From an uncultured bacterium (GTDB taxonomy: Bacteria; Macinerneyibacteriota; Macinerneyibacteria; Macinerneyibacteriales; CAYRFE01): DNA of 64,000 nt. Shown here piece after piece: positions 32,875 through 57,180 of this stretch. Numbering within the stretch: position 1 is the stretch's first letter; each line of letters opens with the position of its first letter. The stretch is taken from positions 21,264-85,263 of the forward strand of contig CAYRFE010000010.1 in NCBI GenBank assembly GCA_964423645.1, written 5' to 3'. The translations under genes were made by a program, and so were the position numbers. Under the pieces are notes generated by a model, which made no database searches, was not told the DNA's origin, and saw nothing but the letters and a program-made list of their open reading frames with translations.

Positions 32875-32878
32875 TGAA

Positions 32879-32905
32879 AAGGGTGCAAAACATTGCACCC
32901 CTTTT
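32879..32905. terminator. Hairpin between the convergent pfp and large-paralog genes
   Basis: AAAGGGTGCAAaacatTGCACCCTTT then ta. Confidence 0.5.
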
Positions 32906-32965: not shown

Positions 32966-35524
32966 TCATTCGATACTCTCAATCACCAATTCTTGTATCC
33001 ACATCGGCATTTTCCCTTTTAGCTTTTTTAACTTGTCGGTTTTGGTTTCGACAGTTTCTCCTTCTTGCGGATATACCTGTTCGCGCCATGTTTCGTCAGT
33101 CAGTAATTCATTATGCATAAACTCATAATAACTGTATACATATCCCGCTCCGATTCGCTTTCCGCCATAAGGATCATTGAGCGCGACATATAGTTTCAAC
33201 GGTTTTCCTATCGCATTGAGTTGATAGGTATCTATTTTTGCTTCAGGATTTATCCACTTTGCAATATCGGTTACAAGCGCCATTCGCGGATCGTCAGTTC
33301 GTATACCAAGCTGCGCTGTTCCAATCAAATCAATCGTTTCCTGTAATGTTGATTTAACCTGTATAATTTTCTCCATTTCATTTACCAATGTATTGATGTA
33401 TTCATTTTCTTCAGCCGAAATTGGTTGCTGAAGAGCCTGTTTTTCTGCAATTATAGTGAGTGTATCAATGACTTTCGAATATCGTTCAAGCCCCACTTGT
33501 AGTTTCGCATCGAGCACTCCCACAATAGGAAACATTTCGTTGTAGCGGTTTAACAATATACGCATTCTGTAAAAAAATGGTAGATTAGGTTCAACATAAT
33601 TAATAACAGGATTTTTATATACATGAAATCCCATAGAACTGGCCAATTGTAAAGGGCGTCTGTATAACACGGTATCATGCATTCGTTGAGTCCACGCACT
33701 AAGCCCTGTCATGAGTGATTTTTTCTCCCAATTCTTACTCTGAGTGAAGTAAAAATCCGGACTGCTTCCAAATTCATACAACGTCGTTATGATGCCTAAA
33801 TAATTCATGTGAATATTCGATTGCCACTCGGATTCTGAATACCGACTACTAAGCGAGGTAAGTTGTGTATAATTACTCTCAAGCTGTGAAAAGGTTTTGA
33901 AATCCTTTTGGATCAACTCGCGACCAAAAGTATTCCCAAATACCGCAGACGTATCATACCCGTGCGGAATACGACGTTCATCGTGAGATTCTTCAAAAAC
34001 TGCGAGTTTTTCCAGTGCATATAAATCAAGATTATAGGTTTGCGGCACTATTTCAAAGAACTCTGCTCGCGAAATACCATCAGAAGAGTAATTACTTTTC
34101 AAGGATTCAATAAAGGCTGCTCTGACTTTGGCATCAAAGATAATATCTCTTCTGTTATCAATATTTTGAAGTAACTCATATGAATAAGCATTACTGTCTC
34201 CGAAAAAATTACGCATTGTAGCAATATACACACTGTATGTCTCCATCAAGTCGGTATTTCGCGAAAGAATCTCATAGAAAAGCACAAATAATGCTGCATC
34301 ATTAGGATACTTGTGTATATCCATCTCAAATCTTAAAGAACTTAACCAGGTAAATACTCGCCAATATTTTTGCAATTGTTCTGTTTCCCGATAATGTATA
34401 CGTGGAGAAAACCGCATGTACGCGATTTCTTTATCGATAATATCAGAGCTTTCAACCCCGGATTCACGTTTAATTTTTTGCAGTTCATTCCGGGCGTTTG
34501 TACTCATTGATTCTTCTTTCACTTGTTCACCGGATAACACAGCAGCAACAGTGAAAACATCATATAACGTATTAAAATAACGTTCATAAGCGGTATAATT
34601 CTTATTTTTTGAATAACTTTGTAAATCGTGATACATTCCACTTACAAATGAAAATAGAAGAGGGGCGAGTATTTTTCGCTCAACATCTATCTGTATCTTA
34701 TAATTCAAAGTACGGAATGTATGCATCAGCCAATCGGTCGTTACAAATATCGACACGGTGCTCCCTTTAGGCTCTACAATATCATAAAGACTTTTATATG
34801 CTTGAATCATATCATCATTATCTTTATATACCTCAAAATTTTCATCCACAATAGCAAATTTGTCACGAATGAGCCGTTGCTGCACGTCGTCAGGAATTCT
34901 TTTAAAACCAACATACGGCAAGAATGCTTTCGGACGATTTTTGTTTTTTGTATAATATTTATCCAATCCGGACTCATCCATCTTCAAAAACGTTACTTTT
35001 TCAGAGTTATACTTACTATTTGATTTAATTATGGTTTTTTTTACATCTACTATTTGATGTTTACCAATACTATTCAATGCCTTAACAATACGTTGAAGCT
35101 TTTCAGGCGAAACATAAGTCATCTCATCAATTAAATCTGTATTACTACCTTTTTTTTCATCCGAGCAAATAGTAGTCCATTGACTTTGAAGAGAATCAAA
35201 CATAGTTTCTGACATATTCGGATGTTTGTTGACTAATTTCTGGAGCCAAAATTTCGCCTGAATGTAATCTTTGTATTCTGCTTGATAAATATGGGAGAGC
35301 ATGCTCATTGCATTATAATAACCATAGGACATTTCAGCAATCTTTTTATAAATTTCAATTGCTTTATCAAATTCTTTATTATTGTAATAAATATATGCGA
35401 CTTGCTCTAAAGCGTCCTTATCCCCCTCATGCGCTTTTTTCTGTAAATCTGCAGGGATATCAATAGCACCGCATAGCGACTTCACAACACACACAAAAAA
35501 TATTATTAAAAGCACACGTTTCAT
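32966..35524 (-). CDS. Large secreted protein (852 aa): N-terminal Sel1/TPR-like region plus conserved C-terminal domain of unknown function
   Basis: Signal peptide; collinear paralog of 35634-38258; the C-terminal 84 aa are identical. Confidence 0.8.
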   Translation of the reverse strand: MKRVLLIIFFVCVVKSLCGAIDIPADLQKKAHEGDKDALEQVAYIYYNNKEFDKAIEIYKKIAEMSYGYYNAMSMLSHIYQAEYKDYIQAKFWLQKLVNKHPNMSETMFDSLQSQWTTICSDEKKGSNTDLIDEMTYVSPEKLQRIVKALNSIGKHQIVDVKKTIIKSNSKYNSEKVTFLKMDESGLDKYYTKNKNRPKAFLPYVGFKRIPDDVQQRLIRDKFAIVDENFEVYKDNDDMIQAYKSLYDIVEPKGSTVSIFVTTDWLMHTFRTLNYKIQIDVERKILAPLLFSFVSGMYHDLQSYSKNKNYTAYERYFNTLYDVFTVAAVLSGEQVKEESMSTNARNELQKIKRESGVESSDIIDKEIAYMRFSPRIHYRETEQLQKYWRVFTWLSSLRFEMDIHKYPNDAALFVLFYEILSRNTDLMETYSVYIATMRNFFGDSNAYSYELLQNIDNRRDIIFDAKVRAAFIESLKSNYSSDGISRAEFFEIVPQTYNLDLYALEKLAVFEESHDERRIPHGYDTSAVFGNTFGRELIQKDFKTFSQLESNYTQLTSLSSRYSESEWQSNIHMNYLGIITTLYEFGSSPDFYFTQSKNWEKKSLMTGLSAWTQRMHDTVLYRRPLQLASSMGFHVYKNPVINYVEPNLPFFYRMRILLNRYNEMFPIVGVLDAKLQVGLERYSKVIDTLTIIAEKQALQQPISAEENEYINTLVNEMEKIIQVKSTLQETIDLIGTAQLGIRTDDPRMALVTDIAKWINPEAKIDTYQLNAIGKPLKLYVALNDPYGGKRIGAGYVYSYYEFMHNELLTDETWREQVYPQEGETVETKTDKLKKLKGKMPMWIQELVIESIE
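33042..33295. repeat. 254-bp block identical to 35731-35984 (3' ends of the tandem paralogs)
   Basis: Base-by-base identical, against roughly 50-60% identity across the rest of the genes. Confidence 0.85.
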
Positions 35525-35633: not shown

Positions 35634-38258
35634 CTATTGCGGCCAAATAGGCATTTTCTCTTTTCCTTCAATCACCAATTCTTGCACCCACATCGGCATT
35701 TTCCCTTTTAGTTGTTTTGACTTGTCGGTCTTGGTTTCGACAGTTTCTCCTTCTTGCGGATATACCTGTTCGCGCCATGTTTCGTCAGTCAGTAATTCAT
35801 TATGCATAAACTCATAATAACTGTATACATATCCCGCTCCGATTCGCTTTCCGCCATAAGGATCATTGAGCGCGACATATAGTTTCAACGGTTTTCCTAT
35901 CGCATTGAGTTGATAGGTATCTATTTTTGCTTCAGGATTTATCCACTTTGCAATATCGGTTACAAGCGCCATTCGCGGATCGTCGGTGCGTATAGCCAAC
36001 TTTTCGGTGGCATATAGATCAATAACTTCCTGAAGAGAAGACTTTGCTTCAACAATTTGTTCCATTTCATACACCAACGAATTTATATACTCATTTTCTT
36101 CAGAGCTTATAGGTTGATTCAATGCCTCTTTATCTACAATCACTGATAAAATATCAATGACAGCCACATAGCGATTTAAGGCTTCCCGAAGCTTCTCATC
36201 GACGATGTCATGGGTGGATATAAAATCGGTATAACTTGCTAGAATTTGCTTCATGCGGTAAAAAAACATCAGATTTGGCTCTACATAATTAATAATAGGA
36301 TGCTTTGTTAATTCAAATGCTTGTCCCCAAGCTGTTGCAAAAGGTTCTCTGTACAAAACGGAATCATGCATACGCTGTGTCCATGCGCTTAAACCGGTCA
36401 TTAATGCTTTTTTCTCCCAATTCTTACTCCGGGTGAAATAAAAATTATCGTTGCTACCGAACGAATACAACTCCTTAAGCAACGAAAGATAGCGCATATG
36501 CAAATTCGATTGCCACTCGACTTCCGAATATCGACCGGCAAGTGTTGTTACTTTTGTATATTCGCCTTCAAGTAATGAAAAGTCCTTAAAGTCTTTTTGA
36601 ATCAATTCATTGCCAAAGGCATTGCCGAATATTGCGGCAGTATCATACCCGTGAGAAATACGATATTCCCGGCGAGATTCTTCCTTAACGCCAAATCGTT
36701 CGATCGCATACAGATCGATATTGTTGGTTTGAGGTAGTATTTCAAAGTACTCTGCAGCAGGCAACAACGGAGCATTTGCGCTTTTGGGCAATGCAGCAAT
36801 AAAATCAGCACGCGTATTCGCATCCGAAATGATGGCGTTCAAATCGGTGATTTTTTCAAGCGTTTGAAAAGAATATGCATCGCTGTTGCCGAAAAACAGC
36901 TGCACTGTTTTACAATACGCCGTGTACAGTTCTGTTGATTCCTTATTGCGGGACAGCACGGTATACAGCAATGCAAATTGCTGTATATCATCCGGATATT
37001 TATTCATATCAATGCTAAACCGTAAGCTGCTCAACCATGTAAAAACACGCCAATATGTGCTCAGTTGCTCTGTTTCTCTATAATGGATTCGCGGGATAAA
37101 TCGTGTATAATCTATTATTTTTCCCGTTACATAGGATTGACGATAGCTTTCTTTTCCGTCCCGAATGAGCGCGAGCTCTTTCTTCGCGTTTTGCGACAAA
37201 TTCTTTTCTGCCGAAGCATCTCCGCTCAATACTGCGGCAATCGAAAAGATGTCATACAGCACATTTGTATGGTCTTTAAACTGCAATCCCTCTTCCGTCG
37301 TGCGATACTCATCGATCTCCTTATACATTTTTCCCGTAAAAGAGATGAGCAAAGGAGCCAATGCTTTGCGCTCTACATCAACTTGAATCTTATAGTTTAT
37401 TGTTCGAAATGTATGCATCAGCCAATCGGTTGTCACAAATATTGACACAATACTCCCTTTAGGATCCCAACGTGGACATAAAGTTTTATACGCTTGAATC
37501 ATATCATCTTTTTTTTCAAACATATCAATGTCTTCATCAACAATAGCGAATCTGTCACGAATGAGACGTTGTTGCACATCATCAGGGATACGCTCAAGCC
37601 CGACATACGGTAAGAATACTTTAGGATGATTTTTATTGTTCTTATAATAGTCCTTCACCTGTGAGTCATCAATCTTCGCAAATACGACTTTTTCATTGTT
37701 TAACTTTTTATTCGGTTTATACACGGGTTGTTTAAGCGGATAAATCCGGGTTTCCTTTGTGTCATTCAATTCTGCACTCAGATGACGAATTTGCTCCGGA
37801 GTAACACTTGTGAGCGCGTTGATTATCTCGGTAGTGTTTATCCCTTTTTCATCTTTACGTATATCATTCCAAATTCCTGAGATTTCCTCATAAATAAAAT
37901 CCGGCAAGTTATTAGGATGTTTATTTACTAGTTTTTGGAGCCAATATTTAGCCTTAATGTAATTTTTGTATTCTATATGATTAATACGAGCAAGCATGAG
38001 CATAGCCATAAAAGAACCGTCCTGTAAGTCTGCGACCTTCTCATATACTTTAACAGCCTTATCGATTTCTTTGTTATTATAATATAGGTGTCCTATTTGT
38101 ATTAACGCTTGCCGATCCCCTTCATTTGCTTTTTTCTGCAATTCTGCAGGGATATCAACAGCGCTGCAAAACAGGTTTAAACACATGTAACAAAAAACCA
38201 TCATTATACAAACACTGCATTTCATACCCTCATCCTCCACTTTGATATCTATACTCAA
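35634..38258 (-). CDS. Large secreted protein (874 aa), tandem paralog of 32966-35524
   Basis: Shared blocks (RIPDDVQQRLIRD, VTTDWLMHTFR, IHYRETEQL, WRVFTWLSSLRF, identical C-terminus). Confidence 0.8.
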   Translation of the reverse strand: MSIDIKVEDEGMKCSVCIMMVFCYMCLNLFCSAVDIPAELQKKANEGDRQALIQIGHLYYNNKEIDKAVKVYEKVADLQDGSFMAMLMLARINHIEYKNYIKAKYWLQKLVNKHPNNLPDFIYEEISGIWNDIRKDEKGINTTEIINALTSVTPEQIRHLSAELNDTKETRIYPLKQPVYKPNKKLNNEKVVFAKIDDSQVKDYYKNNKNHPKVFLPYVGLERIPDDVQQRLIRDRFAIVDEDIDMFEKKDDMIQAYKTLCPRWDPKGSIVSIFVTTDWLMHTFRTINYKIQVDVERKALAPLLISFTGKMYKEIDEYRTTEEGLQFKDHTNVLYDIFSIAAVLSGDASAEKNLSQNAKKELALIRDGKESYRQSYVTGKIIDYTRFIPRIHYRETEQLSTYWRVFTWLSSLRFSIDMNKYPDDIQQFALLYTVLSRNKESTELYTAYCKTVQLFFGNSDAYSFQTLEKITDLNAIISDANTRADFIAALPKSANAPLLPAAEYFEILPQTNNIDLYAIERFGVKEESRREYRISHGYDTAAIFGNAFGNELIQKDFKDFSLLEGEYTKVTTLAGRYSEVEWQSNLHMRYLSLLKELYSFGSNDNFYFTRSKNWEKKALMTGLSAWTQRMHDSVLYREPFATAWGQAFELTKHPIINYVEPNLMFFYRMKQILASYTDFISTHDIVDEKLREALNRYVAVIDILSVIVDKEALNQPISSEENEYINSLVYEMEQIVEAKSSLQEVIDLYATEKLAIRTDDPRMALVTDIAKWINPEAKIDTYQLNAIGKPLKLYVALNDPYGGKRIGAGYVYSYYEFMHNELLTDETWREQVYPQEGETVETKTDKSKQLKGKMPMWVQELVIEGKEKMPIWPQ

Positions 38259-38461: not shown

Positions 38462-39289
38462 ATGATGCAATATATTGTTCAAAACAACTCCACCCTTGTA
38501 GATTTTATCGTTGAGATGTGTACGGTGAGTCGTTCACAAGCAAAACGTATGATTGACATGAGAACAATATTCGTCAACGATCGTCGCGTGTGGATTGCGG
38601 GATATGAACTCAAAGTCGGTGACGTTGTTGAATTACCTGAAGACACTTCGCTAGCACGCGGGCTCCCCGGCATACCGATCCTTTATGAAAACGAACACAT
38701 TATCGTGGTCAATAAACCGGCAGGAATCGTCTCGGATGATGCCAAAAATTCCGTTGAATCCATTCTCAGAACTATTTATGGTGAATCAGTGCAAGCGATC
38801 CACCGGCTTGATAAAGAAACCACCGGAGCGTTATTATTTGCACGCACACCGGAAATATTTGAAAAATATAAAACCTGGTGGAAAGAAGGACGTACCGTGA
38901 AATTGTATGCCGCCTTATGCCTGCACACGGCACGTTTCAAAGAACGTACCGTAACAACACGTGTGGACAATAAACCCGCCCGGTCGATCATTTATGTGCG
39001 TGCAGTATCAGAAAATGCTTCATATGTTGAAATAAATGCAGTTACCGGGCGTAAGCATCAACTACGAATTCATTGTGCATCTATCGGAATACCCATTGCG
39101 GGAGATAAATTTTATACGCTTGAAACACTGGCTGATACGATCGTCAAGTTAATTCCCCGTCAGATGCTTCATTGTATACAGTTAACCGTTCCGCGACCTG
39201 ATGGAGACGGGGAGATCACATTCACAGCGCCGATACCTTCAGATTTCATAAAAACCGCACGAAAACTCGGAATTTCGATTCATATTTGA
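38462..39289 (+). CDS. RluA-family pseudouridine synthase
   Basis: HRLDKETTGALLFAR catalytic-Asp motif. Confidence 0.85.
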   Translation: MMQYIVQNNSTLVDFIVEMCTVSRSQAKRMIDMRTIFVNDRRVWIAGYELKVGDVVELPEDTSLARGLPGIPILYENEHIIVVNKPAGIVSDDAKNSVESILRTIYGESVQAIHRLDKETTGALLFARTPEIFEKYKTWWKEGRTVKLYAALCLHTARFKERTVTTRVDNKPARSIIYVRAVSENASYVEINAVTGRKHQLRIHCASIGIPIAGDKFYTLETLADTIVKLIPRQMLHCIQLTVPRPDGDGEITFTAPIPSDFIKTARKLGISIHI

Positions 39290-39315
39290 TCCGCTTTAAA
39301 GACAGCAATACGATA

Positions 39316-39457
39316 CCTTCGCAAAATTCATCATTTCAAAAATTTCTTTATTTTCTTAAAAGGGGTGGGGGGACAAAGTCCCCACTATATAACAAGTTAA
39401 ACCCCTCCCTATTTTCATGGGAGGGGTTTGGGGTGGGCACAATTCGAGACCTTTGCA
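39316..39457 (+). repeat. Repeat family A copy 5 (first of a tandem pair)
   Basis: Hairpin 1 GGGGACAAAGTCCCC at 39369-39383; hairpin 2 CCCCTCCCtattttcatGGGAGGGG at 39402-39426. Confidence 0.8.
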
Positions 39458-39610
39458 AAATTCATCATTTCCAAAATTTCTTTATTTTCTTAAAAGGGGT
39501 GTGGGGACGAAGTCCCCACTATATAACAATTTAAGCCCCTCCCGATTTTTACGGGAGGGGTTTGGGGTGGGCACAATTCATAAAAATAATAGTATTTTTG
39601 CAAAGCTCTC
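39458..39610 (+). repeat. Repeat family A copy 6 (second tandem unit, closest to a consensus)
   Basis: Hairpin 1 GGGGACGAAGTCCCC at 39504-39518; hairpin 2 CCCCTCCCgatttttaCGGGAGGGG at 39537-39561; tail ttcataaaaataatagtatttttgcaaagctctc. Confidence 0.8.
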
Positions 39611-39616
39611 AAATAT

Positions 39617-40185: not shown

Positions 40186-41118
40186 TCATTTATCAATGAT
40201 AACTAAATTATTCATACGTGAAGATTCATAAATCGATTCTTCCAGAAGTTCCAATATATCGTCAATCGTTTTCATTTTCCGCACATACACCAAACCTTTG
40301 TCAAAACGAGCGGTAATTTCTTTGTCATGTAAAAACTTGCTCATTTCTTTTTCTATTCTATTGATAACGTCGATGATGGTCACCTCTTCAGGATTTTCCA
40401 AAATGACCATTAAACCGGTTCCTCCATGTAATGATATCGTATCAATGGCGCGAATATGTTTCTTTATTGTTTTGGCTAATCCTGCAACAGCAAGATCCAT
40501 CGTTGCCGACCCGTAACGTTTTTTCAATTCGATAAACTCATGATAGCGAGTATAAAAAACTGCAAAACATTGCTTGTGGCGACGTAACCGCTCAAGCACT
40601 TCCTGTAATTTGATATAGAAATAACTGGCACTGTATGCACCCGTTTCCTCATCATATACTGCCATATTATGTACCATCTCATCAAGGCTCATCGTTTTTA
40701 AAATAAATGCGGCAAGCATACTGATATTCTCGAAGAGCGTAAGGTCATCATCATGGAATTCACGTTCAGATGCCATTATTGAGAGACCAACAGTGACGTT
40801 TTTAACGGTCAATGGAAACAGATATACCGAACCGGGATTATTTTCCAACGGGTATTCGCTTCCTGCTCGCACACCTTCATGCGATTCAAAAGCTTTCGCG
40901 ATGCATTCATCAGTCAATGTCAACGTATTACTATTGATAAATGCCGCACTTACTCCACGTGCCATTTTTACACGGAAACGATCATGACTGAACACATATA
41001 ACACACATTGCTTTAAATGCAACTCTTTCATAAGCGCAGTCATCAGATTTGATAAAATTTCTTCATACGTTGACGCATGCGACACGTTTTTTAAAAATGC
41101 ATTATGTTTTTTTTGCAT
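40186..41118 (-). CDS. GAF-like domain plus degenerate GGDEF-like domain protein (predicted catalytically inactive)
   Basis: RYHEF where GG(D/E)EF is expected; start reassigned to Met 29 (41118), which has the RBS aaggagagggcATG. Confidence 0.6.
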   Translation of the reverse strand: MQKKHNAFLKNVSHASTYEEILSNLMTALMKELHLKQCVLYVFSHDRFRVKMARGVSAAFINSNTLTLTDECIAKAFESHEGVRAGSEYPLENNPGSVYLFPLTVKNVTVGLSIMASEREFHDDDLTLFENISMLAAFILKTMSLDEMVHNMAVYDEETGAYSASYFYIKLQEVLERLRRHKQCFAVFYTRYHEFIELKKRYGSATMDLAVAGLAKTIKKHIRAIDTISLHGGTGLMVILENPEEVTIIDVINRIEKEMSKFLHDKEITARFDKGLVYVRKMKTIDDILELLEESIYESSRMNNLVIIDK

Positions 41119-42787
41119 CGCCCTCTCCTTTATTTTGCTGCGTATGCAGCATCGTTTTCTTTTCGACATAAGAGCTCTGCACCACATAATCGGATCCCTC
41201 AAATTCTTTCACGACCGTCGATACATCATTCACCGCTGCAACAATTCGATCGAGCATCGCACGCTCTGAGGGGAATTTTCGCATCAATAATTCGATTGTA
41301 GCCAAGATCGTGGTAAGTGGCGAATTAATGCGATGATTAAGTGTTACCGAGAGATCATGCACAAGATGAAGTTTTTCTTTGACCACTTCTGATTCATCAG
41401 CACATAAGCGTAGATAGATCATGCCGGTATATGATAAAAAATCAACAATTTCTGCTAATTCTTCCTGAGAAACCATTCGCTTACTAAAGACGTTATCACC
41501 ATAAATGAATCCGCTGATTGTTCCGGGACCGGGTATAGGAAAAACATAATATGTGCTTGACCCGACTCTTTTTGTAAAACTTTGATGGAGTAAATTATCT
41601 TTTTCGGTATAAAACTCTTTATCGCCGAATGATTCCGGCATCGTAATAATCTGTTGAGAAAAAATATCAGGTTTGCAATCGGCAAGATACTCACGTAAAT
41701 GATACCCGTGAGTATTTTTATCAAAAAAGAATACTCTGTCAAAATGAAAATATGTAGTGAATGTCGTAAAAAAAGAAGTAAATGCTCGTGACGGATCACC
41801 ATATACTAAATCTTTTAAAAATTCATGCAAGAATTCCTGTTTATATAGACGTTTGTTAAGTGTGACGATGACATCTCGCGAGAATTCATGCTTTTCAGCG
41901 GCAAAAAATTTATGGATATTTTCAAAATCGTTGTAATATGATGTGTCAAGAGAATATGAATCCAAAAAATTCTTGATCTTCGGTAATACGCCGCCTATCA
42001 CCTCATCAAGAAGTGAAAGCGACATGAGCAATTCTTTCTCAGTGAAAATAAAAAAGTAGGGTAATTCTTCAATAATATGATTATGCAATACAGCCCATAC
42101 AAATTCTTCGCAAAAGGTCATTATCTTTCGATGCGAGGGATCTTCCGGAGAATGGAGATTACTACACGCTGCATCCACAAATGTTTGCGGTAAATGCCAT
42201 TTTTCAAGAATATATTTACTCAACGCAATGTGTGAAAAACCCAGTGACCGTATTTGTGACTCGAGAAACGTTTGAAGTGTTTCCGTATCTTTCTTGAGTA
42301 TATCGGAAAGTAGCTCATACTGAGTTTCATATAAAAACAAATACCCAATATGCCGTAACAACATTTGTGAAAACAGTATTCCTTGTATAGGAATGCCTTT
42401 TATCTGAGCAAGACGCTGGGTAAGTAACGCAGAGACAAACGAAAAAAGGAAAAAACGTTTTGTTTCTTCTTCCGGGACATTGGCAAATGATCGTGTGTGT
42501 TCATAAAATAAGACACATAACAACACCTCGCGTAATTTATCCAGCCCGAGTAGTGACACCGCATGTTGTATATCGGTAATTTTATGCGGTAAATAGTAAT
42601 AACCTGAATTTATTAAATTGAATACTTTTGCAGAGAGCATCGCATTCTGCTCCAACTCACTGCTTATCATTTTTATATCGGTTTCATCCGACATCAGTAT
42701 TTGAATGATTCGAATAACGATCGTCGATGGTAAATGATGATGATTCAGTAGAGTATCTATTGCCGAATAATCTATGCCTTGCGTCAT
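41102..42787 (-). CDS. HDOD-domain protein with a C-terminal HisKA-like dimerisation/phospho-acceptor segment and no ATPase domain
   Basis: N-terminal HDOD features; C-terminal [25 protein letters not shown] matches an H-box; the protein ends about 60 aa later. Confidence 0.65.
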
Positions 42788-43431
42788 ATCTTTAAGTACT
42801 TTCTTACCTTAACCTGCAAAAATAAAGGAAGAAGCGAGAGGGATCGGCTCACGACATTTTTATATCCCCTGATCGAATTATCGATCATATATACTAAGAG
42901 CACGTATTTTTCACTTACCTCCGCGGCGATCCAAAAATCTTTCACCAAAAACATATTGGATAAATCCGTTAAATACGTGATTAAGAAATCATGCGCGATC
43001 GCTCTGTTTCCTGAATTGGGATCCTTTTTAGCCGCATGTATCAGTGCTTTCAGTGCCATTTCTCGACGCTCGAACAAAACATACATTGCTTGGCGACGAA
43101 CCAGATAATTTCCGGAATACATCACCAGATTCACAATTTCTTCTGCAGGCATACGGCGAACAAGCGGATCAATAATATGAAAAAAGAAATATTTCTTTTT
43201 CGGTTTGGGCGTTATTTGCTTCACGGCCATATCCGGTTTCACTCGATAATCTATCGGCGTTCTGCAAACACTTGAATACGCATCTTGAATGTGTTTGAAT
43301 TTTTCAATATCTCCACCGGGATTATCGGGATGATACCGTTTTACAAGCGCACGATAGGCTCGTTTAATCTCTTCTTTGTGCGCATTTTTTGAAACACCCA
43401 GCACTTCATACCATACTTCGACATCGTTCAT
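42784..43431 (-). CDS. J-domain co-chaperone (DnaJ-like N-terminal domain only)
   Basis: [30 protein letters not shown] with an HPD motif; no Gly/Phe, Zn-finger or C-terminal DnaJ domains; ATGA overlap with the Hsp70 gene. Confidence 0.8.
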
Positions 43432-45143
43432 TCGTTGTGGCCCTCCGTAATAATACGTGCGGTTTCTATAAGTTCACGCAACACGGTGATATCTCTGTCT
43501 GCAATATGCCGATCAATATCTTGTATTAAATGCACTACATCTTCATGCTCGCTGTCGTGAGCTAATGTGGCATACTCATTTAACGCATCGATCATTGTGT
43601 GAGCAGTCGCAATAATTGACTCTTCTTTCTCATGAATCATCTCATCTTGTCGTTCGCTCTCTTCAATAATCGCTTGAACTTCTTCATCGGAAAGCGAACT
43701 CATGTTTTGAATTTCAAGTTCTTTCTTTACACCTGAGTGCATGTCCGCTGCTGATACGGACAATACACCGTTTTGATCCATACTGAACGTCACTTCAATA
43801 TCGGGTTCGCCCTTTTTCATGGCTTGGATATCCGTCAGCTCAAAACTCCCTAAAAAATGATTGTCTTTTACATTCGATGATTCACCTTGGAAAACCTTCA
43901 CTTCAACAATCTTCTGATAATCCGAAACAGTTGTAAAGTTCTGCATACGCGAGACCGGTATCGGCGTATTTCGTGTAATTAACGGCGCAAAAACACCTTT
44001 ATCTATTTCAATCCCTAAAGAAAAAGGAGTCACATCAACCAAAATCATATTCTCGCCAATTTCCCGCGTCACCACACCCTGTATAATCCCCGCCTGAATT
44101 GCCGCACCCATGGCAACACATTCATCGGGATTAATATTTTTATACGGTTTAGTATCGGAAAGGTCCTGCAGTTTTTTTTCTACGATAGGAATTCGCGTTG
44201 ATCCGCCAACCAATATCATCTTTGATAATTCACTGACTTTTACCTGTGCATCATCCAAAACACGATAAAACGGTTCATCAAGTTGATCAATATAATCATG
44301 TATCAAATCTTCGAATTGTGCACGAGTAAGCCGCATTTCTAAATGCCGAGGTCCAAGTTCATCGGCAGTAATAAACGGAATACTTATCGCAGTATGCTTC
44401 GCCTCAGACAATTCGACCTTCGCCTTCACCGATTGTTCATAAATACGCTGTAATGCCATACGATCGGTTGAAAGATCGATACCGGTTTCATTTAAAAAAG
44501 CCGACAATATATAATCTGCAATTCGAGTGTCAAAATCATCTCCCCCAAGCTTATTGTTTCCCGACGATGCAAGAACTTCAAAAACATTGTCTCCTACATC
44601 AAGGAGAGACACGTCATACGTCCCACCACCCAAATCCATGATGATTATACGCTCTCCGTCGGTTTGATTATTCGCTCCGTACGCCAGCGCTGCTGCAGTC
44701 GGTTCGTTAATGATACGTAATACGTTCAAACCTGCAATTTTAGCTGCCTGCATTGTCGCCGATCGTTGATTGTCATTAAAATATGCGGGGACTGTTATAA
44801 CGGCATCAGTGACACTGTCACCTAAAAAAACCTCTGCATCATCTTTCATTTTTCGCAATATAATTCCCGAAACTTCTTCGGGGGAATACTCAATGGAGTC
44901 AATTTTTATTTTTTCTTTTGTTCCCATCAAACGCTTTACGGATACTATTGTCCGTTCAGGACTTATAACCGCTTGATTTTTCGCACTTTGACCTACCAGA
45001 ATTTCCTTGTCTTTTGTCACTGCAACACAGGAAGGAGTAAGTCGCTCTCCTCTGTTATTGGGAATAATTTCCGGTTTGCCATCTTTTAAATATGCCATTA
45101 CCGAATTTGTGGTTCCCAGATCAATACCTATAGTAATACCCAT
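43428..45143 (-). CDS. Hsp70-family ATPase, short HscC-like form
   Basis: [20 protein letters not shown], Hsp70 substrate-binding beta domain; 571 aa with a truncated C-terminal lid. Confidence 0.88.
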
Positions 45144-45157
45144 AGCTGCTCCTTAAT

Positions 45158-45988
45158 TCAATCAAATAATAATTCACCATTTTTATGTGCGCTATCGGCT
45201 TCAGCAGTAATTGTCTCGATATCTGCGCCGGTCAATCCCAATGTACGTGCAGATTCCAGTTGCGTAAAATCGTGTGCTGTTTGATATAAACCAAATCCCA
45301 AATGATATGCCAACGCATCAGCGACATTGATATACACAGCCAAAGGGCTTTCGGCAGCTGCCGTCATATCATGATGAAAGCGAATACCATCTATAAGTGC
45401 ATCGCTGAATTTCCATTTTATTGCAATCTCCCGACCAATATCTGCATGAGTATATCCAAGAATCCGCAGTTCAGGATCCACAAAAGATTTTTTCATATCA
45501 TATACATCGGTAAGCACCAATTCATATTCCTTTTGAAACATTTGATACATAAATGTCTTTCCAAGATCATGTAACAATCCCGCGACAAAGGCTTCTTCAG
45601 GCACAGGATATTTTCGTATTTTCGCAATAGACCTCGCAACAAATGCAACAAATTGTGCGTGTTCCCATAGTTTTTTTGACACAAGAGACTTTGAATCAAA
45701 ATACATGTTTTTCGTTGAATATGCAACGACAAGATTGCGAACGGTGGATAAACCCAAAACAACCACCGCATCCCGCACGGTTGTGATTCGTCGTATTGTT
45801 GAGTAATATGCCGAGTTGGCCGTTTTCAAAAGTGCAGACGTCAACGCTTCATCCCGATATACGGCATCTTGAATCTCGCGTGCAGTAACATTTTCGTCAT
45901 GCAACAAATCGATGACTTGTCGAGCAACATGCGGCATGACAGCCAATTCTTGCAATCTATCCAGTACACCTTCCGGGACGTTATTCAT
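45158..45988 (-). CDS. HDOD-domain signalling protein
   Basis: 276 aa with the conserved HDLGK region. Confidence 0.8.
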   Translation of the reverse strand: MNNVPEGVLDRLQELAVMPHVARQVIDLLHDENVTAREIQDAVYRDEALTSALLKTANSAYYSTIRRITTVRDAVVVLGLSTVRNLVVAYSTKNMYFDSKSLVSKKLWEHAQFVAFVARSIAKIRKYPVPEEAFVAGLLHDLGKTFMYQMFQKEYELVLTDVYDMKKSFVDPELRILGYTHADIGREIAIKWKFSDALIDGIRFHHDMTAAAESPLAVYINVADALAYHLGFGLYQTAHDFTQLESARTLGLTGADIETITAEADSAHKNGELLFD

Positions 45989-46674
45989 ATCTCTCCTTCA
46001 ATTTTCATGATCGGTATAACAATTGACTGAACACATCCGGATGCTTCATGTTCTATACGATACACCCCCGCATGTTTTTCCGCCGTTCGTTTACAAAATG
46101 CCAACCCTAGATATATTGCACCTGTATAGTCGTGTGAAAAAGGATCGGGTACAATTTCAGGCACACGATACGAATCATCAACTTCACTGATCACTCGCAC
46201 CGTAAACATTTCGTCTTTAGCGGTCGTATACACACGAATAGTTCCTTTTTGTGTAATTGCGCAGGCATAGGTGATCATTTCAACAAGAGCTGATACCAAC
46301 TGATCTTTATCACAGCGGAGCATGGTTTCATGTGCAGTATCCTCGATAGTAATTTTTGATAACGGATGTATTGTCTGCCAACAATCTCTCAGCGCAACAA
46401 TATCTTCAACAATCGAACGCACGTCACAATCGTCCCACGTGTATTCGCGCCCTGTTTTTTCACGTACCGAACGAATATACGCACTCATTTCTTCAACGAC
46501 ATGGGCCATTTTCTTTTTCATTTCATCATTACCCTCGATGAATGTGGCATAATTGATCAAAAGAAAAAGGTAATTATTCAATTTGTGGGTCATTGCACTG
46601 ACTACTTCTCCGACAGATGTATTCCGTTGAAGATTAATAAATCGTTCGACCGATGATTGCTCATAAGTATTCAC
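45985..46674 (-). CDS. Minimal cytoplasmic histidine-kinase-like protein (DHp + CA core, no sensor or TM)
   Basis: H-box THKLNN; HATPase-like C-terminus with weak G-boxes; 229 aa; 5 nt downstream of cheA. Confidence 0.6.
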   Translation of the reverse strand: MNTYEQSSVERFINLQRNTSVGEVVSAMTHKLNNYLFLLINYATFIEGNDEMKKKMAHVVEEMSAYIRSVREKTGREYTWDDCDVRSIVEDIVALRDCWQTIHPLSKITIEDTAHETMLRCDKDQLVSALVEMITYACAITQKGTIRVYTTAKDEMFTVRVISEVDDSYRVPEIVPDPFSHDYTGAIYLGLAFCKRTAEKHAGVYRIEHEASGCVQSIVIPIMKIEGEI

Positions 46675-46679
46675 AAAGT

Positions 46680-48830
46680 TTACACTCCTGCGATTTCTTT
46701 TTTCACCATTCCTGCCATACCACTTACATCAATAATAAGAGAAACGCGCCCGTCACCTAATGTGCTCGCGCCTGAGATTCCGGGAATATTACCTAAATAT
46801 TCACTTAATGATTTAATGACTATTTCTTCTCTTCCTAAAAGTTCATCCACGAGCAAACCTAATTTTCGTCCGCCGACGGATACGATTACTACATAATACT
46901 CTTTTTTATTAACATCATAATTGGGGACATCAAATACTTCCGATAAACGTAACAATGGAAGAACCACGTCGCGCAAATTGAGCACTTCTTTATTATTAAT
47001 GGTTCGTATTTCGGAGAAAGTAACCTTGCTTGTTTCAATAACTGATGTTATCGGCACCGAGTATATTTCATCAGATACCGATACCAATAATGCCGTAACG
47101 ATCGCAAGTGTCAGCGGTAAGCGAACTTTCATTTTTGTCCCTTTACCAAGTTCGGTTGTAATCTCAATCATACCGTTCAGTTTTTGCACATTCGAACGTA
47201 CCACATCCATACCCACACCGCGTCCCGATGTATTGCTGACCAACTCAACCGTTGAAAAACCGGGGAGGAATATAATATTCAAAATTTCATTTTCACTCAT
47301 ATTTCTCAACGATGTTTCGTCAACAATACCTTTTTCTATCGCTTTGCGTGCAATTTTTTTGGTATCAATACCGCGTCCGTCATCTTCAACCTCAATGACA
47401 ATATTGTCACCTTCCTGATATGCCGAAAGATAGATCGTTCCGACCGCAGGCTTTCCCATTCTTTTACGCTCTTCCGGTGTCTCAATCCCGTGGTCAACGG
47501 AGTTACGAAGAATATGAACTAAAGGATCCCCTATATACTCCACGATCGATTTATCCAATTCTGTCTCTTCCCCAGAAATGATCAAATCAATTTCTTTGTT
47601 TTTTTCTCGTGCAAGAGTGCGAATCATACGCGGATATTTGTTGAACACTTTTCCAATAGGCAAAAGACGAGTTTTCATAACCGCCATCTGCAATTCAGAT
47701 GTCACAAAATTAATATTCGCAGTATTGTCGTTCAATTGTTCAATAAATTCATTATCCTTTGTCGACGATAATATACCCGAGATTCGCAAAAGTCTGTTCT
47801 TTGCCTGCACCAACTCTCCCACAAGATTCATCAGTTGATCCAGTCGCTTCACATCGACACGTATCGTCTGTTCAACGCCTCGCTCTTTCACTAAGGCACT
47901 CGCATTTTTCTGCTCAACGGGAATATCATCTTTGTTCTTATCAGACGAGGTTTGCTCATGCTTGTGCGCTTCACCGGTAAGTTGAGCCAATTTGATCATG
48001 ATCGATTTTGTCTCGACTTGCGGTTGTTTTCCCTCTTTTAGATCTTTGTTGATTAATTGCAATTTATCGATTCCCTCAAGCATACCGTCAACAAGTTCTC
48101 GCTCGAGCGTAAATACTCCATCTCGAATTTTATTAAGAATATCTTCAATTTTATGTGCAACTTCAGCCATTTGATTCACACCAATAAAACCTGCAGATCC
48201 CTTCACCGTATGTATTTTACGATAAAAATCATTCAAAATTTCTTTGTTATCCTTATGTTTCTCCCAATTCACCAACTCTTGACTCAAAAAATCAAGATTT
48301 TCTTCCGCCTCAATGACAAATTCTTGCAACACCTCGCGAAGCACTTCGTCTTTAAAATATCCGGGTTGTGCATCATCCTCGGCATCCTCATCGATATGTT
48401 CGTCTTTGATTTTCACATCGGGTACTTGGACGACACTGTCTTCACTCGCCTTCTCAAGTCGTTGGATCAATTGTTGTATATCCACAGATTCCGGGTCACC
48501 TTTGCTGATTTGTTCAAGTAATTGCTTCATATTATCCATTACGACAAATAACATATCAACAATTTCAGGTGTTGCTTCCATTTCATTTTTACGCAATTTA
48601 TTGAGCACATCCTCGGCATGATGCGTGAGTTTGGTTAAGACATCAAATCCTAAAAATGATGCCGAACCCTTAATAGTATGCGCCGAACGAAATATACTAT
48701 TAAGTAAATCAAGATTTTGCGTGTCCTTCTCAAGCTCAAGAAGGTCTTTTTCCATTTGATCTAACAGTTCATTCGATTCTATAATAAAATCCTGAATGAT
48801 ATTATCCATGTCATCTGAACGGGGTGTCAT
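46680..48830 (-). CDS. cheA: Chemotaxis histidine kinase CheA with two tandem HPt (P1) domains
   Basis: HTIKGSASFLGF and HTVKGSAGFIGV phospho-acceptor motifs; dimerisation, HATPase (DDGRGID, GRGVGMDVV) and CheW-like domains. Confidence 0.92.
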   Translation of the reverse strand: MTPRSDDMDNIIQDFIIESNELLDQMEKDLLELEKDTQNLDLLNSIFRSAHTIKGSASFLGFDVLTKLTHHAEDVLNKLRKNEMEATPEIVDMLFVVMDNMKQLLEQISKGDPESVDIQQLIQRLEKASEDSVVQVPDVKIKDEHIDEDAEDDAQPGYFKDEVLREVLQEFVIEAEENLDFLSQELVNWEKHKDNKEILNDFYRKIHTVKGSAGFIGVNQMAEVAHKIEDILNKIRDGVFTLERELVDGMLEGIDKLQLINKDLKEGKQPQVETKSIMIKLAQLTGEAHKHEQTSSDKNKDDIPVEQKNASALVKERGVEQTIRVDVKRLDQLMNLVGELVQAKNRLLRISGILSSTKDNEFIEQLNDNTANINFVTSELQMAVMKTRLLPIGKVFNKYPRMIRTLAREKNKEIDLIISGEETELDKSIVEYIGDPLVHILRNSVDHGIETPEERKRMGKPAVGTIYLSAYQEGDNIVIEVEDDGRGIDTKKIARKAIEKGIVDETSLRNMSENEILNIIFLPGFSTVELVSNTSGRGVGMDVVRSNVQKLNGMIEITTELGKGTKMKVRLPLTLAIVTALLVSVSDEIYSVPITSVIETSKVTFSEIRTINNKEVLNLRDVVLPLLRLSEVFDVPNYDVNKKEYYVVIVSVGGRKLGLLVDELLGREEIVIKSLSEYLGNIPGISGASTLGDGRVSLIIDVSGMAGMVKKEIAGV

Positions 48831-48843
48831 AAAACCTACCTCC

Positions 48844-49425
48844 TTATTTTAGCGCAAAAGCTAAATCTTTCGACAACAACGGGACCGCTTTCTTATGCAT
48901 TTGCAATCGAATCCTTTGAGTCACTTTTTTTGCTCCTAAACTTCCATAAGAAAGCACAGGATACGCGAATATCCGTTCGTTTGATTCTACATGCTCATCA
49001 TGCGTCGTATAGACGGTCATATAGATAACATAATGAGCAACAAGATCACCCTTCTCCGCGACAAAAGGAATCGACGTTTTTTTGTCTTTTACAATATCAG
49101 TTTCACGCAGAGATACGGTTATCACGCGGTCATACCCTTTTCGCCCGTATGATGCCATTTCATGCACAATTCTTGCAGCATCAAATGCACCTCTATCATA
49201 GTGAGTATACTCCATCTGATGCGCTGAATCAAGTGAATTTTCAATGGTCATCTGCCACAGCTCATTCGTATAAGGATACCGATCCCAACCGTCGCCTAGT
49301 ATAATCATCACTCGTTCAGCTTTGAGCAACCCAATCATTGAAAATACCCCAATACACAACATGATACATTTTCGCACCGGATTTAACAGATCCGATACGT
49401 GTGATCTTTGACTCCGTCTTTTCAT
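48844..49425 (-). CDS. Hypothetical secreted or membrane-anchored protein
   Basis: N-terminal hydrophobic segment; tightly packed in the operon. Confidence 0.5.
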   Translation of the reverse strand: MKRRSQRSHVSDLLNPVRKCIMLCIGVFSMIGLLKAERVMIILGDGWDRYPYTNELWQMTIENSLDSAHQMEYTHYDRGAFDAARIVHEMASYGRKGYDRVITVSLRETDIVKDKKTSIPFVAEKGDLVAHYVIYMTVYTTHDEHVESNERIFAYPVLSYGSLGAKKVTQRIRLQMHKKAVPLLSKDLAFALK

Positions 49426-49730
49426 GAGTGCCCCCGCGCTTTCTTGTTTAAACGGTATAAAAACGCATATATTTCTGCGACCACGACAAAGGCATTCTCC
49501 GGTATTTCATGCTCAACTTCGATCGTATCCAGCAGTGAAACAAGATCTTTATCCTCAACAAGGGGAATATGATGCTCTTTGGCAATAGAGATGATCGCTT
49601 CCGCGATATGACCCCAGCCTTTTGCTGACACTTTCGGCGCATGTGCAGTATCCGCGTCATACGTAAGAGCGACTGCCTTTTTGATCAAATCACGCCCTTT
49701 CATACTACGACGTCTATGCCTTCTTCGCAC
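49422..49730 (-). CDS. FlhB C-terminal-domain-only protein (EscU/YscU/FlhB family, YlqH-like)
   Basis: VALTYDADTAHAPKVSAKGWGHIAEAIISIAKEHHIPLVED...VVAEIYAFLYRL parallels the B. subtilis YlqH / FlhB cytoplasmic domain. Confidence 0.8.
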   Translation of the reverse strand: MRRRHRRRSMKGRDLIKKAVALTYDADTAHAPKVSAKGWGHIAEAIISIAKEHHIPLVEDKDLVSLLDTIEVEHEIPENAFVVVAEIYAFLYRLNKKARGHS

Positions 49731-50551
49731 TGAAACGCGAGCATTAAAATAGGATCATGCAATATTCCCGAATGCTTCACCGTTAATGATGCAACCGAAA
49801 TACCTTTTTCATGCAATGCAGTACGCAATTCTCGGAATGCCCCCTGAATGATACGTGCTGAATCTTCCGTCGCAGTATACATATGAATACCTATTGTTGA
49901 GTGCCATTGACGAACGACGGCAAGAATCGTTCCAAGAGATGATAACTCAGCCATTATACGGTACTCTTCCATTCCGGTCGAGTTTTTCGGTGTATACGAA
50001 AAATAGCCGTCTCGCAATAATTCATTCTCCACATAGGGAAATGCCATAAAAAACATCCCTTTTTCACCATATTCTTGTGAAATGATCTTATCAAATTGTG
50101 CATGACGCAATATATCATCTGCTTCTTTTTCATTCGTAAGCAACGGGGAAACCGGTATTTTTGATAATTCCGATTGTTCCTGTAAAAATTCTTTGGTTAA
50201 TTCGGTATCCGGTGATTTAATCACAATCCCGGGCAACCGTATCTGAAGAAAGGTCTTGAAAAAAGCGGCGAGCTTGGGTTCTGCTGACTCGAAAAGCTTG
50301 GGTAAAACCTTTTCCATGTTCACCAGTTCCAAAACCGGCAGTGGCGAAAGTGATTTTACTCGTACAAATATACCTTCCTTATCCTGTAATATCATTTCAG
50401 ACGCCGCAGTTAAAACCGAGCCTTGTATTTTAATCGAAAAAAGATTATTCCCGAGCTGCTCCTGTACCACGGCATGGTATAAGCCGCCTTTAATAAAAAC
50501 AGGAAGCGGTTTCCCCTGCTGCAGGTGTAGTTGGATCGTATCAACGCGCAT
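49700..50551 (-). CDS. Hypothetical protein in the flagellar operon
   Basis: 283 aa; no motif recognised; co-directional and overlaps its neighbours. Confidence 0.5.
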   Translation of the reverse strand: MRVDTIQLHLQQGKPLPVFIKGGLYHAVVQEQLGNNLFSIKIQGSVLTAASEMILQDKEGIFVRVKSLSPLPVLELVNMEKVLPKLFESAEPKLAAFFKTFLQIRLPGIVIKSPDTELTKEFLQEQSELSKIPVSPLLTNEKEADDILRHAQFDKIISQEYGEKGMFFMAFPYVENELLRDGYFSYTPKNSTGMEEYRIMAELSSLGTILAVVRQWHSTIGIHMYTATEDSARIIQGAFRELRTALHEKGISVASLTVKHSGILHDPILMLAFQCEEGIDVVV

Positions 50552-53945: not shown

Positions 53946-53947
53946 AC

Positions 53948-57174: not shown

Positions 57175-57180
57175 ACCGCC

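Follow-up and report, generated by a model that had tools for sequence, protein, structure and literature searches.

A mosaic family of interspersed repeats with two maintained hairpins and a conserved G-rich tail in an uncultured bacterium

What kind of element recurs, together with its hairpins, in the spacers between genes of an uncultured bacterium of the Macinerneyibacteriota? The question is raised by a stretch of 64,000 nucleotides (nt) of contig CAYRFE010000010.1 (assembly GCA_964423645.1), referred to here as the window, in which a repeat named family A occurs as a tandem pair at 39306-39610 and again at several other sites. Copies were sought by self-comparison of the window for repeats and with an nhmmer profile built from the copies, and the results confirm family A as a genuine dispersed repeat family, with eight clear copies in the window, the tandem pair among them, and two stubs. 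The profile recovers seven full copies with E values from 1e-51 to 3.5e-32 (39442-39613, 22163-22375(-), 39308-39446, 2667-2833, 11230-11388, 61020-61176(-) and 63224-63364(-)). In the repeat search, segments 39306-39439 and 39440-39573 lie head-to-tail with 92% identity and a period of 134 nt, and segments 22189-22296 and 39479-39586 show 88% complementarity over 108 nt. All copies proposed by an earlier analysis of the letters alone (the sequence-only reading) exist at or near the positions it listed, with two corrections: the 22 kb copy extends to 22375, taking in a left repeat and an inserted module, and the tandem units occupy 39306-39439 and 39440-39610. The interpretation that we favour, with somewhat better than an even chance of being right, is that family A is not a gene and belongs to the non-autonomous mosaic interspersed repeats of the kind represented by repetitive extragenic palindromes (REPs), bacterial interspersed mosaic elements (BIMEs) and miniature inverted-repeat transposable elements (MITEs), formerly spread by a trans-acting enzyme, reshuffled by recombination and kept in spacers at the 3' ends of genes.

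The copies share a core of ~105 nt that encompasses, in order, a G-run (AGGGGTG), hairpin 1, an A/T linker, hairpin 2 and a tail. The core starts with AAAGGGGTG(T/C) and leads into hairpin 1, GTGGGGAC-GAA-GTCCCCAC (8 bp, 19 nt), which has a predicted stability of -14.6 kcal/mol as RNA and -8.5 as DNA. The linker between the hairpins is 16-18 nt long, A/T-rich and ends in TTAAG. Hairpin 2 consists of CCCCTCCCG and CGGGAGGGG separated by an A/T loop of 7-10 nt (25 nt in all; -24 kcal/mol as RNA, -12 as DNA) and is followed by the tail, TTTGGGGTGGGCRCAA, of which TTTGGGGTGGGCRCA is the near-invariant portion. Depending on what surrounds the core, the unit measures 100-250 bp.

Base pairing in both hairpins is maintained by compensatory substitutions, as the sequence-only reading had claimed. 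Searching with a covariance model of the core recovers 16 distinct copies in several genomes, namely in the window, in other contigs of the same genome (L062, L064 and L072/L073), in a sister species (L060) and in a related metagenome-assembled genome (MAG; L010, L011 and L013). In the resulting alignment, which is fitted to the structure and contains copies that are related and few in number, the paired fraction of cells is 92.3%, changes on both sides affect six pairs and ten cells, the covariation score is 0.147 and none of 500 shuffles does as well. When the partner is displaced by one to three columns, pairing falls to 40-69%. RNAalifold, applied to 10 copies, agrees and predicts both hairpins with double changes in 6 of 21 pairs. 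In hairpin 2, a U-A pair is replaced by G-C (CCCCTCCC/GGGAGGGG vs CCCCGCCC/GGGCGGGG), and C-G pairs are replaced by U-A at two further positions in the 61 kb and 2.7 kb copies. Hairpin 1 behaves likewise, with GTGGGGAC/GTCCCCAC in some copies and GCGGGGAC/GTCCCCGC or GCGTGGAC/GTCCACGC in others, and two copies carry a different perfect hairpin at this position (11293-11313; L064:19678-19697). The hairpin variants singled out from the letters alone are all present: GGGGACGAAGTCCCC, GGGGACAAAGTCCCC, GGGCAGAAA-ATC-TTTCTGCCC (11293-11313), CCCCTTCCG/CGGAAGGGG (61061-61085) and CCCCTCTCG/..AGAGGGG (2759-2783). Covariation by itself does not separate selection at the RNA level from selection on DNA hairpins read by a mobilising enzyme. 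An RNA role might be expressed as an excess of G.U pairs over A.C mismatches on the sense strand; the core stems show 8 against 4, and the addition of hand-counted terminal-repeat stems (6:2) gives 14:6, a ratio that is suggestive only and not significant (binomial p ~0.06).

The core is embedded in two different frames. In frame A1, to which most window copies and those of L060 and L073 belong, it lies between A/T spacers and terminal inverted repeats of 15-19 nt (TTTAAAGACCTTTGCAAAA). The left repeat reads GAGACCTTTGCAAAA and the right one TTTTGCAAAG(G/C)TCTC, extended in some copies to TTTAAAGACC... Pairs of such repeats enclose the copies at 39.4, 22, 11, 14.6 and 0.3 kb. The motif CTTTGCAAAA, allowing at most one mismatch, occurs 23 times in the window against an expectation of 10.2 +/- 3.1, with matched inverted pairs around copies, and folding predictions bring the A1 ends together as a stem (z -5.3 for one strand and -7.0 for the other).

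Frame A2 is found in L064:19593-19769, from the same genome, and in the three loci of the related MAG, none of which has terminal inverted repeats. Its 5' end is formed by AATGGGTCAAATTCCCC, a T-arm-like hairpin, and by a CUUG-tetraloop hairpin, CCGAAG-CUUG-CUUCGG; its 3' end reads CGATACCCC-GUAG-CUUG-CUGC-GGGG and then TAGTTCATTTT, the closing stretch after the CUUG hairpin being also given as GTTCATTTT. Similarity among A2 copies starts and stops sharply at these end modules. The full A2 form comprises five hairpins over ~230 nt, from AATGGGTCAAATTCCCC to GGGGTAGTTCATTTT, and two of them, H0 and H3, are similar hairpins in direct orientation near opposite ends. Long-range pairing between H0 and the tail was rejected as a further structural feature: all its pairs are invariant G.U, so it has no covariation support.

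Modules are shuffled, truncated or deleted from copy to copy. The 22 kb and 63 kb copies are A1/A2 hybrids, L064 has the 3' arm of hairpin 1 replaced by a GTAG-tagged palindrome, and L073:1640-1749 and L073:4377-4481 hold only the 5' part of the element; hybrids, swapped hairpins and 5'-only copies are the reason for calling family A mosaic. Other derivatives are a repeat-only stub (311-347), a hairpin-less copy (14.6 kb) and the tandem pair.

Unit 1 of the tandem pair (39306-39439, + strand) has a left terminal repeat at ~39314-39326, hairpin 1 at 39367-39385, hairpin 2 at 39402-39426 and its G-tail at 39427-39441; it is without a right terminal repeat of its own and adjoins the left repeat of unit 2. 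Unit 2 (39440-39610, +) is the most complete copy with terminal inverted repeats (nhmmer E 1.2e-51; covariance model 122 bits), with left repeat GAGACCTTTGCAAAA at 39444-39460, hairpins 1 and 2 at 39501-39519 and 39536-39560, G-tail at 39561-39575 and right repeat TTTTTGCAAAGCTCTC at ~39594-39610; its ends pair in the predicted fold (-58.2 kcal/mol, z -5.3). The hybrid 22 kb copy (22138-22375, -; E 8e-46) shows the same order, with left repeat at 22357-22369, hairpin 1 at 22256-22274, hairpin 2 at 22215-22239, G-tail at 22200-22214 and right repeat at 22169-22181, and adds an inserted Hm1+H0 module (22308-22335, CUUG tetraloop) and, past the right repeat, a decayed H3 module (22138-22157). In the other hybrid, at 63 kb (63205-63366, -; E 3.5e-32), the left repeat (63347-63356), hairpin 1 (63303-63321, with an A-U outer pair), hairpin 2 (63262-63286) and G-tail (63246-63260) are kept, and the right repeat is replaced by an H3-type end module (63205-63235).

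The 11 kb copy (11229-11390, +; E 1.7e-34) is of the terminal-repeat type, with repeats at 11236-11248 and 11371-11383, hairpin 2 at 11315-11335 and G-tail at 11338-11355; its hairpin 1 is the one swapped for another perfect hairpin. The most decayed full-length copy lies at 2.7 kb (2664-2835, +; E 1e-35), with mismatches in hairpin 1 (2724-2742) and hairpin 2 at 2759-2783, and sits antisense between the stop codon of a chemoreceptor (MCP) gene, 2855-4522(-), and the terminator of that gene, 2660-2638(-). The 61 kb copy (61036-61176, -; E 1.8e-33) has a degenerate left end, no right repeat, a single C.C mismatch in hairpin 1 (61102-61120), hairpin 2 at 61061-61085 in the form CCCCTTCCG/CGGAAGGGG and its tail at 61045-61060; it begins 26 nt past the stop codon of open reading frame (ORF) 61191-61790(-). 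The copy at 14.6 kb (14581-14675, +) is an internal-deletion derivative that has kept both terminal repeats and the G-tail (14628-14646) and lost both hairpins (E 6e-5 over 14627-14676); the spacer around it holds divergent promoters, among them a TTGTCA-16-TATAAT promoter for gene 14713 that follows shortly after the copy. The two stubs are a minimal copy at 310-350 (+), made of left and right terminal repeats with ~15 nt between them (a bare pair at 311-347), and a weak fragment at 52-134 (+; E 0.16), in which spacer, linker and the start of hairpin 2 run into a different hairpin, TCATCGA..TCGATGA, a junction that recurs at the end of L060.

Copies occupy 8 of the 26 spacers of the window, including 4 of the 6 convergent ones against 4 of the 20 others (one-sided hypergeometric p ~0.05), and the four sites named in the sequence-only reading as lying between convergent genes (11.3, 22.2, 39.5 and 63.3 kb) do so. 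Co-orientation with the upstream gene was dropped as evidence: it is automatic in convergent spacers and hence uninformative there, and the three informative sites split 2:1. Under the interpretation that we favour, a putative trans-acting enzyme would have spread the copies in the past, and recombination among them would have produced the hybrids, tandem units, internal deletions, truncations and swapped hairpins. Copies would then persist where they are least harmful, in the 3'-end spacers of genes and chiefly between convergent genes. Read-through transcription would place them in 3' untranslated regions, where the two very stable hairpins could fold (-14.6 and -24 kcal/mol as RNA). Pairing may have been kept because hairpin formation was needed for recognition by the mobilising enzyme, for a tolerated or useful barrier at mRNA 3' ends, as with Escherichia coli REPs, or for both. 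The label 'REP/MITE-like', already proposed for these copies, is the best available, given their terminal inverted repeats, internal deletions, truncations and module shuffling and the assembly breaks that fall within copies.

Several observations weigh against this interpretation. Five complete copies share no direct repeat in their flanks at any plausible boundary; terminal inverted repeats are present on most window copies, a target-site duplication on none of those five. No clean empty site was found: the only orthologous comparison shows an old copy common to the window and L060, and the corresponding spacer of a further sister species (L061) is unalignable. Neither a transposase nor a Y1 (RAYT) gene was seen in the window (Pfam, most ORFs) or in ~200 kb of related sequence (precomputed Pfam labels). 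Copies are 70-92% alike and none are identical, which gives no sign of current activity. The copies of the related MAG are without terminal repeats, which therefore cannot be the sole cis-acting site. Lastly, the conservation of the tail exceeds what the hairpins need and is left unaccounted for by a REP/MITE-like explanation.

Could the core instead serve the host? It might be a cis-acting module of mRNA 3' ends (a barrier to 3'-exonucleases, a weak or factor-dependent terminator, or an insulator of convergent genes) that is selected by the host and spreads mainly by recombination or gene conversion. We consider this unlikely. In its favour, the element provides, for eight window genes, the only strong hairpins downstream of the stop codon, and canonical terminator-like sites occur in the window about as often as by chance (19, 25 and 25 found vs 14.9, 16.7 and 17.4 expected). 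The antisense tail is a C-rich, G-free tract, UGUGCCCACCCCAAACCCC, that could load Rho, and the stems are kept by compensatory change. Moreover, stem-loops mark transcript 3' ends in both Rho-independent and Rho-dependent termination across bacteria (PMC13613805), and REP/BIME clusters of E. coli influence mRNA stability (PMC3184786). Against this, neither hairpin of any family A copy is followed by a U-tract on either strand, whereas native terminators (396-426, 32877-32905 and L073) have one; the earlier statement that no copy is followed by a canonical T-tract is borne out by terminator scans. Hairpin 2 is followed by UUUGGGG, hairpin 1 by ACUAUAUA and antisense hairpin 1 by ACACCCCUUUUAAG; only the optional H3 module has a U-rich tail. 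Several copies also precede or follow a separate canonical terminator (2.7 kb, L010, L013 and L073) and so are not needed for termination. The lack of U-tracts and the presence of separate native terminators beside several copies likewise led to rejection of an intrinsic-terminator reading. In addition, one copy has lost its hairpins and is located in a spacer of divergent promoters.

Some terminators of the host resemble the element. Native ones, which consist of a hairpin and an immediate U-tract, were seen at 396-426(-), 32877-32905, L073 ~1880-1915(-) and L062 ~676-694(-), and some of them look like family A hairpins; among them, CCCTCTT..AAGAGGG followed by AUUUUCAU resembles hairpin 2. 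A solo hairpin 1, TGTGGGGACGATGTCCCCACA followed by UUCAUUUCAU, stands directly after a stop codon, and a UUCAUUU tail recurs behind several hairpins.

Comparison with sister species bears further on a host function. At the single orthologous insertion site, after RluA, L060 carries a copy that is 89% identical to that of the window and has in common with it an unusual GGGGTGG variant. Control spacers are 86-88% identical between the two species, so the element is no better conserved than ordinary spacers at this site, and constraint on it stronger than neutral was rejected. The RluA gene itself is an outlier, with only 38% identity at fourfold-degenerate sites; the neighbouring PFK and DUF3160 genes are far less diverged. 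RluA (38462-39289 vs L060:10001-10828) shows 75.7% nucleotide identity and 51% at third positions, compared with 88% (third positions 69%) for PFK, 92% (88%) for the DUF3160 C-terminus and 86-89% for the flanking spacers, a divergence that may reflect recombination or relaxed constraint at that gene. Another sister species (L061 and L074) has no copy in 30 kb, which also argues against a host-selected module, and its RluA/HD spacer, which may be a decayed relic, gives no significant alignment to the element, with scores within the shuffled range.

Alternatively, the long A2 form might represent independently transcribed small RNA genes, of which the shorter forms are decayed copies, a proposal that we rate as distinctly unlikely. 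Its appeal lies in the A2 boundaries, which are sharp and conserved at both the 5' and 3' ends in at least five copies from two genera, and in the 3' module, a stable CUUG-tetraloop hairpin (-17.2 kcal/mol) followed by the U-rich UUCAUUUU, a tail that also stands behind other terminator-like hairpins. The genes upstream of the element in L010, L013 and L073 end in canonical terminators of their own before it begins, and G.U pairs exceed A.C mismatches on the sense strand, by the ratio given above. That excess is not significant, however, and the A2 copies, for all their conserved ends and a terminator-like H3 followed by UUCAUUUU, have no conserved -35/-10 elements upstream, although canonical sigma-70 promoters are in use in this organism. 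Synteny is not conserved and neighbours are unrelated; copies are mosaic, truncated, tandem or begin a few nucleotides past stop codons. Rfam has no match, whether in the window or in eight related loci: at the gathering and at permissive thresholds no family is reached, the highest scores being 15-23 bits where 37-111 are required. No tRNA or tmRNA gene was found. The idea of a family of small structured RNAs, put forward in the sequence-only reading beside the REP/MITE one, is not supported, given the missing conserved promoter and copies that are truncated or lie directly against stop codons. A sigma-54 or sigma-70 promoter within the element and small ORFs across the H3 module were also considered and found unsupported.

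The tail raises a question of its own. It is the most conserved segment of family A, is retained in the hairpin-less copy and recurs across phyla. Together with the overlapping 3' arm of hairpin 2 it forms GGGAGGGGTTTGGGGTGGG, a canonical G-quadruplex motif, defined here as four runs of at least three G with 1-7 nt spacing. All five canonical motifs of the 64 kb, against 0.13 expected from shuffles, lie in family A copies on the element sense strand (11330-11350, 22204-22222, 39419-39437, 39553-39571 and 63250-63269, that is, in five of the eight window copies) and are candidate G-quadruplexes. The copies at 2.7 and 61 kb and those of L062 and Paludibacter have a disrupted motif. A text search of the literature for the tail and hairpin 1 motif strings returned no occurrence. 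Oddly, no explanation offered here, favoured or rival, requires such a tail.

A third rival is a role at the DNA level. Hairpins and G-tail could function while the DNA is single-stranded or supercoiled, forming a hairpin/G-quadruplex switch or a site for an HUH/Y1 enzyme, in a RAYT- or IS200/IS605-like and PATE-like manner; recognition by such an enzyme would explain the missing target-site duplication. We hold this to be very unlikely. It gains from the restriction of the regional G-quadruplex motifs to sense strands of the element, from the survival of the tail in the hairpin-less copy and its presence in several phyla, and from the A2 form, which has neither terminal inverted repeats nor a duplication and carries the similar, directly oriented H0 and H3 hairpins near its ends. 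Furthermore, in eight of nine copies of the terminal-inverted-repeat type the sense strand coincides with the locally C-rich one (the GC skew of the window + strand is negative throughout; L073, L060 and L072 were included), a weak hint of a strand preference that is possibly replication-related, coming from few and partly linked copies. However, strands are mixed (5:3) in a second group, composed of A2-type copies, H3-bearing copies and the 61 kb copy, the G-quadruplex motif is broken in the four copies named above and elsewhere only a candidate for folding, hairpins 1 and 2 are mutually unlike and untagged (neither GTAG nor CGTC), and ~260 kb of lineage sequence shows no Y1 gene.

The same genome does contain GTAG-tagged, perfect REP-type palindromes, at window positions 62025-62048(+) and 62341-62365(-) and at L064:19678-19701; another is at L060:4411-4438. 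Palindromes such as GTAGAGACGTAGCATGCTACGTCT and GTAGAGCCACGGCATGCCGTGGCT share the same frame and a central GCATGC, and their stems differ by compensatory changes, which suggests a separate REP/RAYT-like system in this genome. One of them stands inside a family A copy, a fact that can also be counted for a DNA-level element.

How far does family A extend beyond this species? The core is present in the related MAG, GCA_964539615.1 (CAZIJP01), which represents a related genus, comes from JGI sample 3300020048 and encodes a CopA 67% identical to that of the window genome. Among the relatives, the core is found in this MAG and in L060, and no copy in the 30 kb of L061/L074. Exact-pattern scans with GGGGTTTGGGGTGGGCRCA covered 185,579 species genomes and JGI metagenomes. 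The genomes yielded 23 stretches, of which four are related (the three loci of GCA_964539615.1 and L005), and the metagenomes 31, of which only L028 is related; the others are chance matches. L028, a contig of 55% GC, has an exact hairpin 2 and tail, and L005, from a Paludibacter MAG, has CTTAAGCCCC...GGGGTTTGGGGTGGGCACA within an array of hairpin repeats; their covariance-model scores are 35.4 and 25.3 bits, respectively. This array (L005:4570-5170, Paludibacter sp. MAG JAFLKK010000013.1) comprises ~5 hairpin units after a GH115 gene; the units are told apart by A-to-G substitutions of the 3' arm, which would preserve pairing as G.U (ACTTAAGAGTGG vs ATTTAGGGGTGG). No transposase adjoins the copies in L005, L010, L011 or L028, where GH115, a DEAD-box helicase, an M28 peptidase and a cytochrome c-like protein make up an ordinary set of neighbours. 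A 16-mer scan of viral contigs gave 31 stretches, all by chance, and blastn against plasmids and phages gave no match.

Such a distribution allows a more ambitious reading, to which we give only a slim chance: that the double hairpin of the core and its invariant tail (..AAGCCCC-hairpin-GGGGTTTGGGGTGGGCACA) form a structured module, not just selfish DNA, which spreads horizontally in several phyla and acts as RNA or single-stranded DNA. Its hosts would comprise this deep lineage, the Paludibacter (Bacteroidota) MAG and the 55%-GC bacterium, and the module would be a hairpin/G-quadruplex switch at mRNA 3' ends or the recognition or guide structure of an undescribed mobilising enzyme.

Within its own genome, the interspersed repeat is unevenly spread. 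About 14 copies were counted over ~111 kb, which amounts to ~1 per 8 kb, with none in L070 (21.8 kb) and two to three in L072 (14 kb). By rough extrapolation of this density, several hundred copies genome-wide are plausible. Assemblies break within copies (L001, L059, L060, L062 and L072), as expected of a many-copy repeat. The same genome is also represented in JGI 3300020048, in ENA ERZ27262924 and ERZ27262927 and in Logan SRR7760390 and SRR7760392.

The host belongs to a deep, poorly sampled lineage, as indicated by its nearest RluA homologues outside its own clade, which are only 42-44% identical and come from Goldbacteria, Aquificae and Brevinematia. MCPs, CheA, FlhA, FlhF and a FliA-like sigma factor are recognised by Pfam among the products of the window, which also has a glycan cluster. 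These chemotaxis and flagellar genes, together with TTGACA/TATAAT promoters, led to rejection of a Bacteroidota promoter at the right end of the element, which reads TAnnTTTG. A long co-directional flagellar/chemotaxis cluster, 40186-57189(-), with almost no spacers, has no repeat copies; it encodes FlhA, FlhF, a MinD-like protein, the FliA-like sigma factor, CheA, HDOD, Hsp70-like, DnaJ-like and GGDEF proteins. The nearest named homologues in this deep lineage are only 38-49% identical. On either side of the unannotated ORF 61191-61790, hairpin repeats of other kinds crowd the long spacers 60476-61190 and 61791-62401, and the repeat pairs there (60801-60875/61928-62002, TTTCCCCCTCTTTGCAAAAAAGAGGGGGAAA; 60720-60768/62264-62312; 8986-9033/60496-60543) belong to further families, separate from family A. 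Paralogous DUF3160 genes in tandem, 32966-35524 and 35634-38258(-), repeat with a period of 2689 nt and are 71-76% identical over most of their length; their 98% identity over 300 nt (32979-33278/35668-35967) suggests local gene conversion between them.

If family A is the mosaic interspersed repeat proposed here, a well-defined and structurally constrained repeat family is added from a barely sampled, flagellated, uncultured lineage. It would be useful as a lineage marker and as an explanation of breaks in MAG assemblies, would warn annotators against calling small RNAs or terminators at its copies, and would offer a test case for the upkeep of hairpins in REP/MITE-like elements. Two features could lift it above the routine, the near-invariant G-rich tail that supplies all G-quadruplex motifs of the region and the presence of the hairpin-plus-tail module in unrelated genomes. 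Should this module work by its own mechanism, be it as an enzyme's recognition site or as an RNA switch, its importance would rise, a point that is directly testable.

Known REP/BIME and MITE families are GC-rich stem-loops with a bias towards convergent genes, a tendency to cluster and effects on mRNA stability (PMC3184786, PMC3733652). Family A is close in several respects to the REPs and BIMEs of Enterobacteria and Pseudomonas, which are likewise GC-rich extragenic palindromes of 19-25 nt in an AT-richer genome with compensated stems (PMC3733652, PMC3184786), favour spacers after genes or between convergent genes, occur singly, in tandem or as mosaics with linkers and are probably co-transcribed. 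Indeed, hairpins 1 (19 nt) and 2 (25 nt) qualify as the GC-rich extragenic palindromes of 20-40 bp by which REPs are recognised (PMC3733652). However, family A is not a member of the tagged REP superfamilies, because it has no unpaired GTAG or CGTC tag (PMC3733652): hairpin 1 is flanked by GTGT, GTGC or GTAT on its 5' side and by ACTA, ATTA or GCGA on its 3' side, and hairpin 2 by TAAG and TTTG. Nor does it show the BIME arrangement of alternating REPs with defined linkers; its two unlike hairpins share one orientation and are not inverted REP pairs, and the tandem pair is head-to-tail with a period of 134 nt. The unit is also larger (105-250 nt), has a conserved non-palindromic G-rich tail and in many copies terminal inverted repeats, and no RAYT gene was seen.

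The Correia elements of Neisseria and the MITEs RUP, ERIC and Nezha resemble family A in their length of 100-160 bp, their terminal inverted repeats around a non-coding core, their internal-deletion variants, their intergenic position, the long stem-loop that they would form if transcribed and the lack of a transposase of their own (PMC3184786). Family A is nonetheless not a classical MITE, because MITEs are defined with a target-site duplication (PMC3184786), ERIC-type elements being flanked by TA, and none was found around five complete copies of family A. Its terminal repeats are shorter, and the part conserved across genera is the internal double hairpin rather than the termini. Elements that do without a target-site duplication are found among the REPIN/RAYT and IS200/IS605-derived palindrome-associated elements, hairpin repeats that, like family A, persist in lineages and are patchily distributed (PMC3116915, PMC3337134), and the A2 form has similar hairpins near both ends, as they do. 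A REPIN, however, consists of two inverted REPs that form one long hairpin, which family A does not, and for family A no Y1 transposase or conserved cleavage tetranucleotide was identified. Modular construction links family A to the BOX elements of Streptococcus pneumoniae, in which a few box types vary in number and order (PMC3049150, PMC3184786), and the SPRITE repeats of the same species are dispersed and have a structure like a terminator hairpin. The sequences are unrelated, the hairpins of family A have no U-tracts, unlike those of SPRITE, and family A includes a subfamily with terminal inverted repeats; yet BOX and SPRITE, like family A, have predicted stable RNA structures and no dedicated transposase. 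Family A is thus a further example of the REP/MITE-type repeats known in other bacteria and not a novel kind of system.

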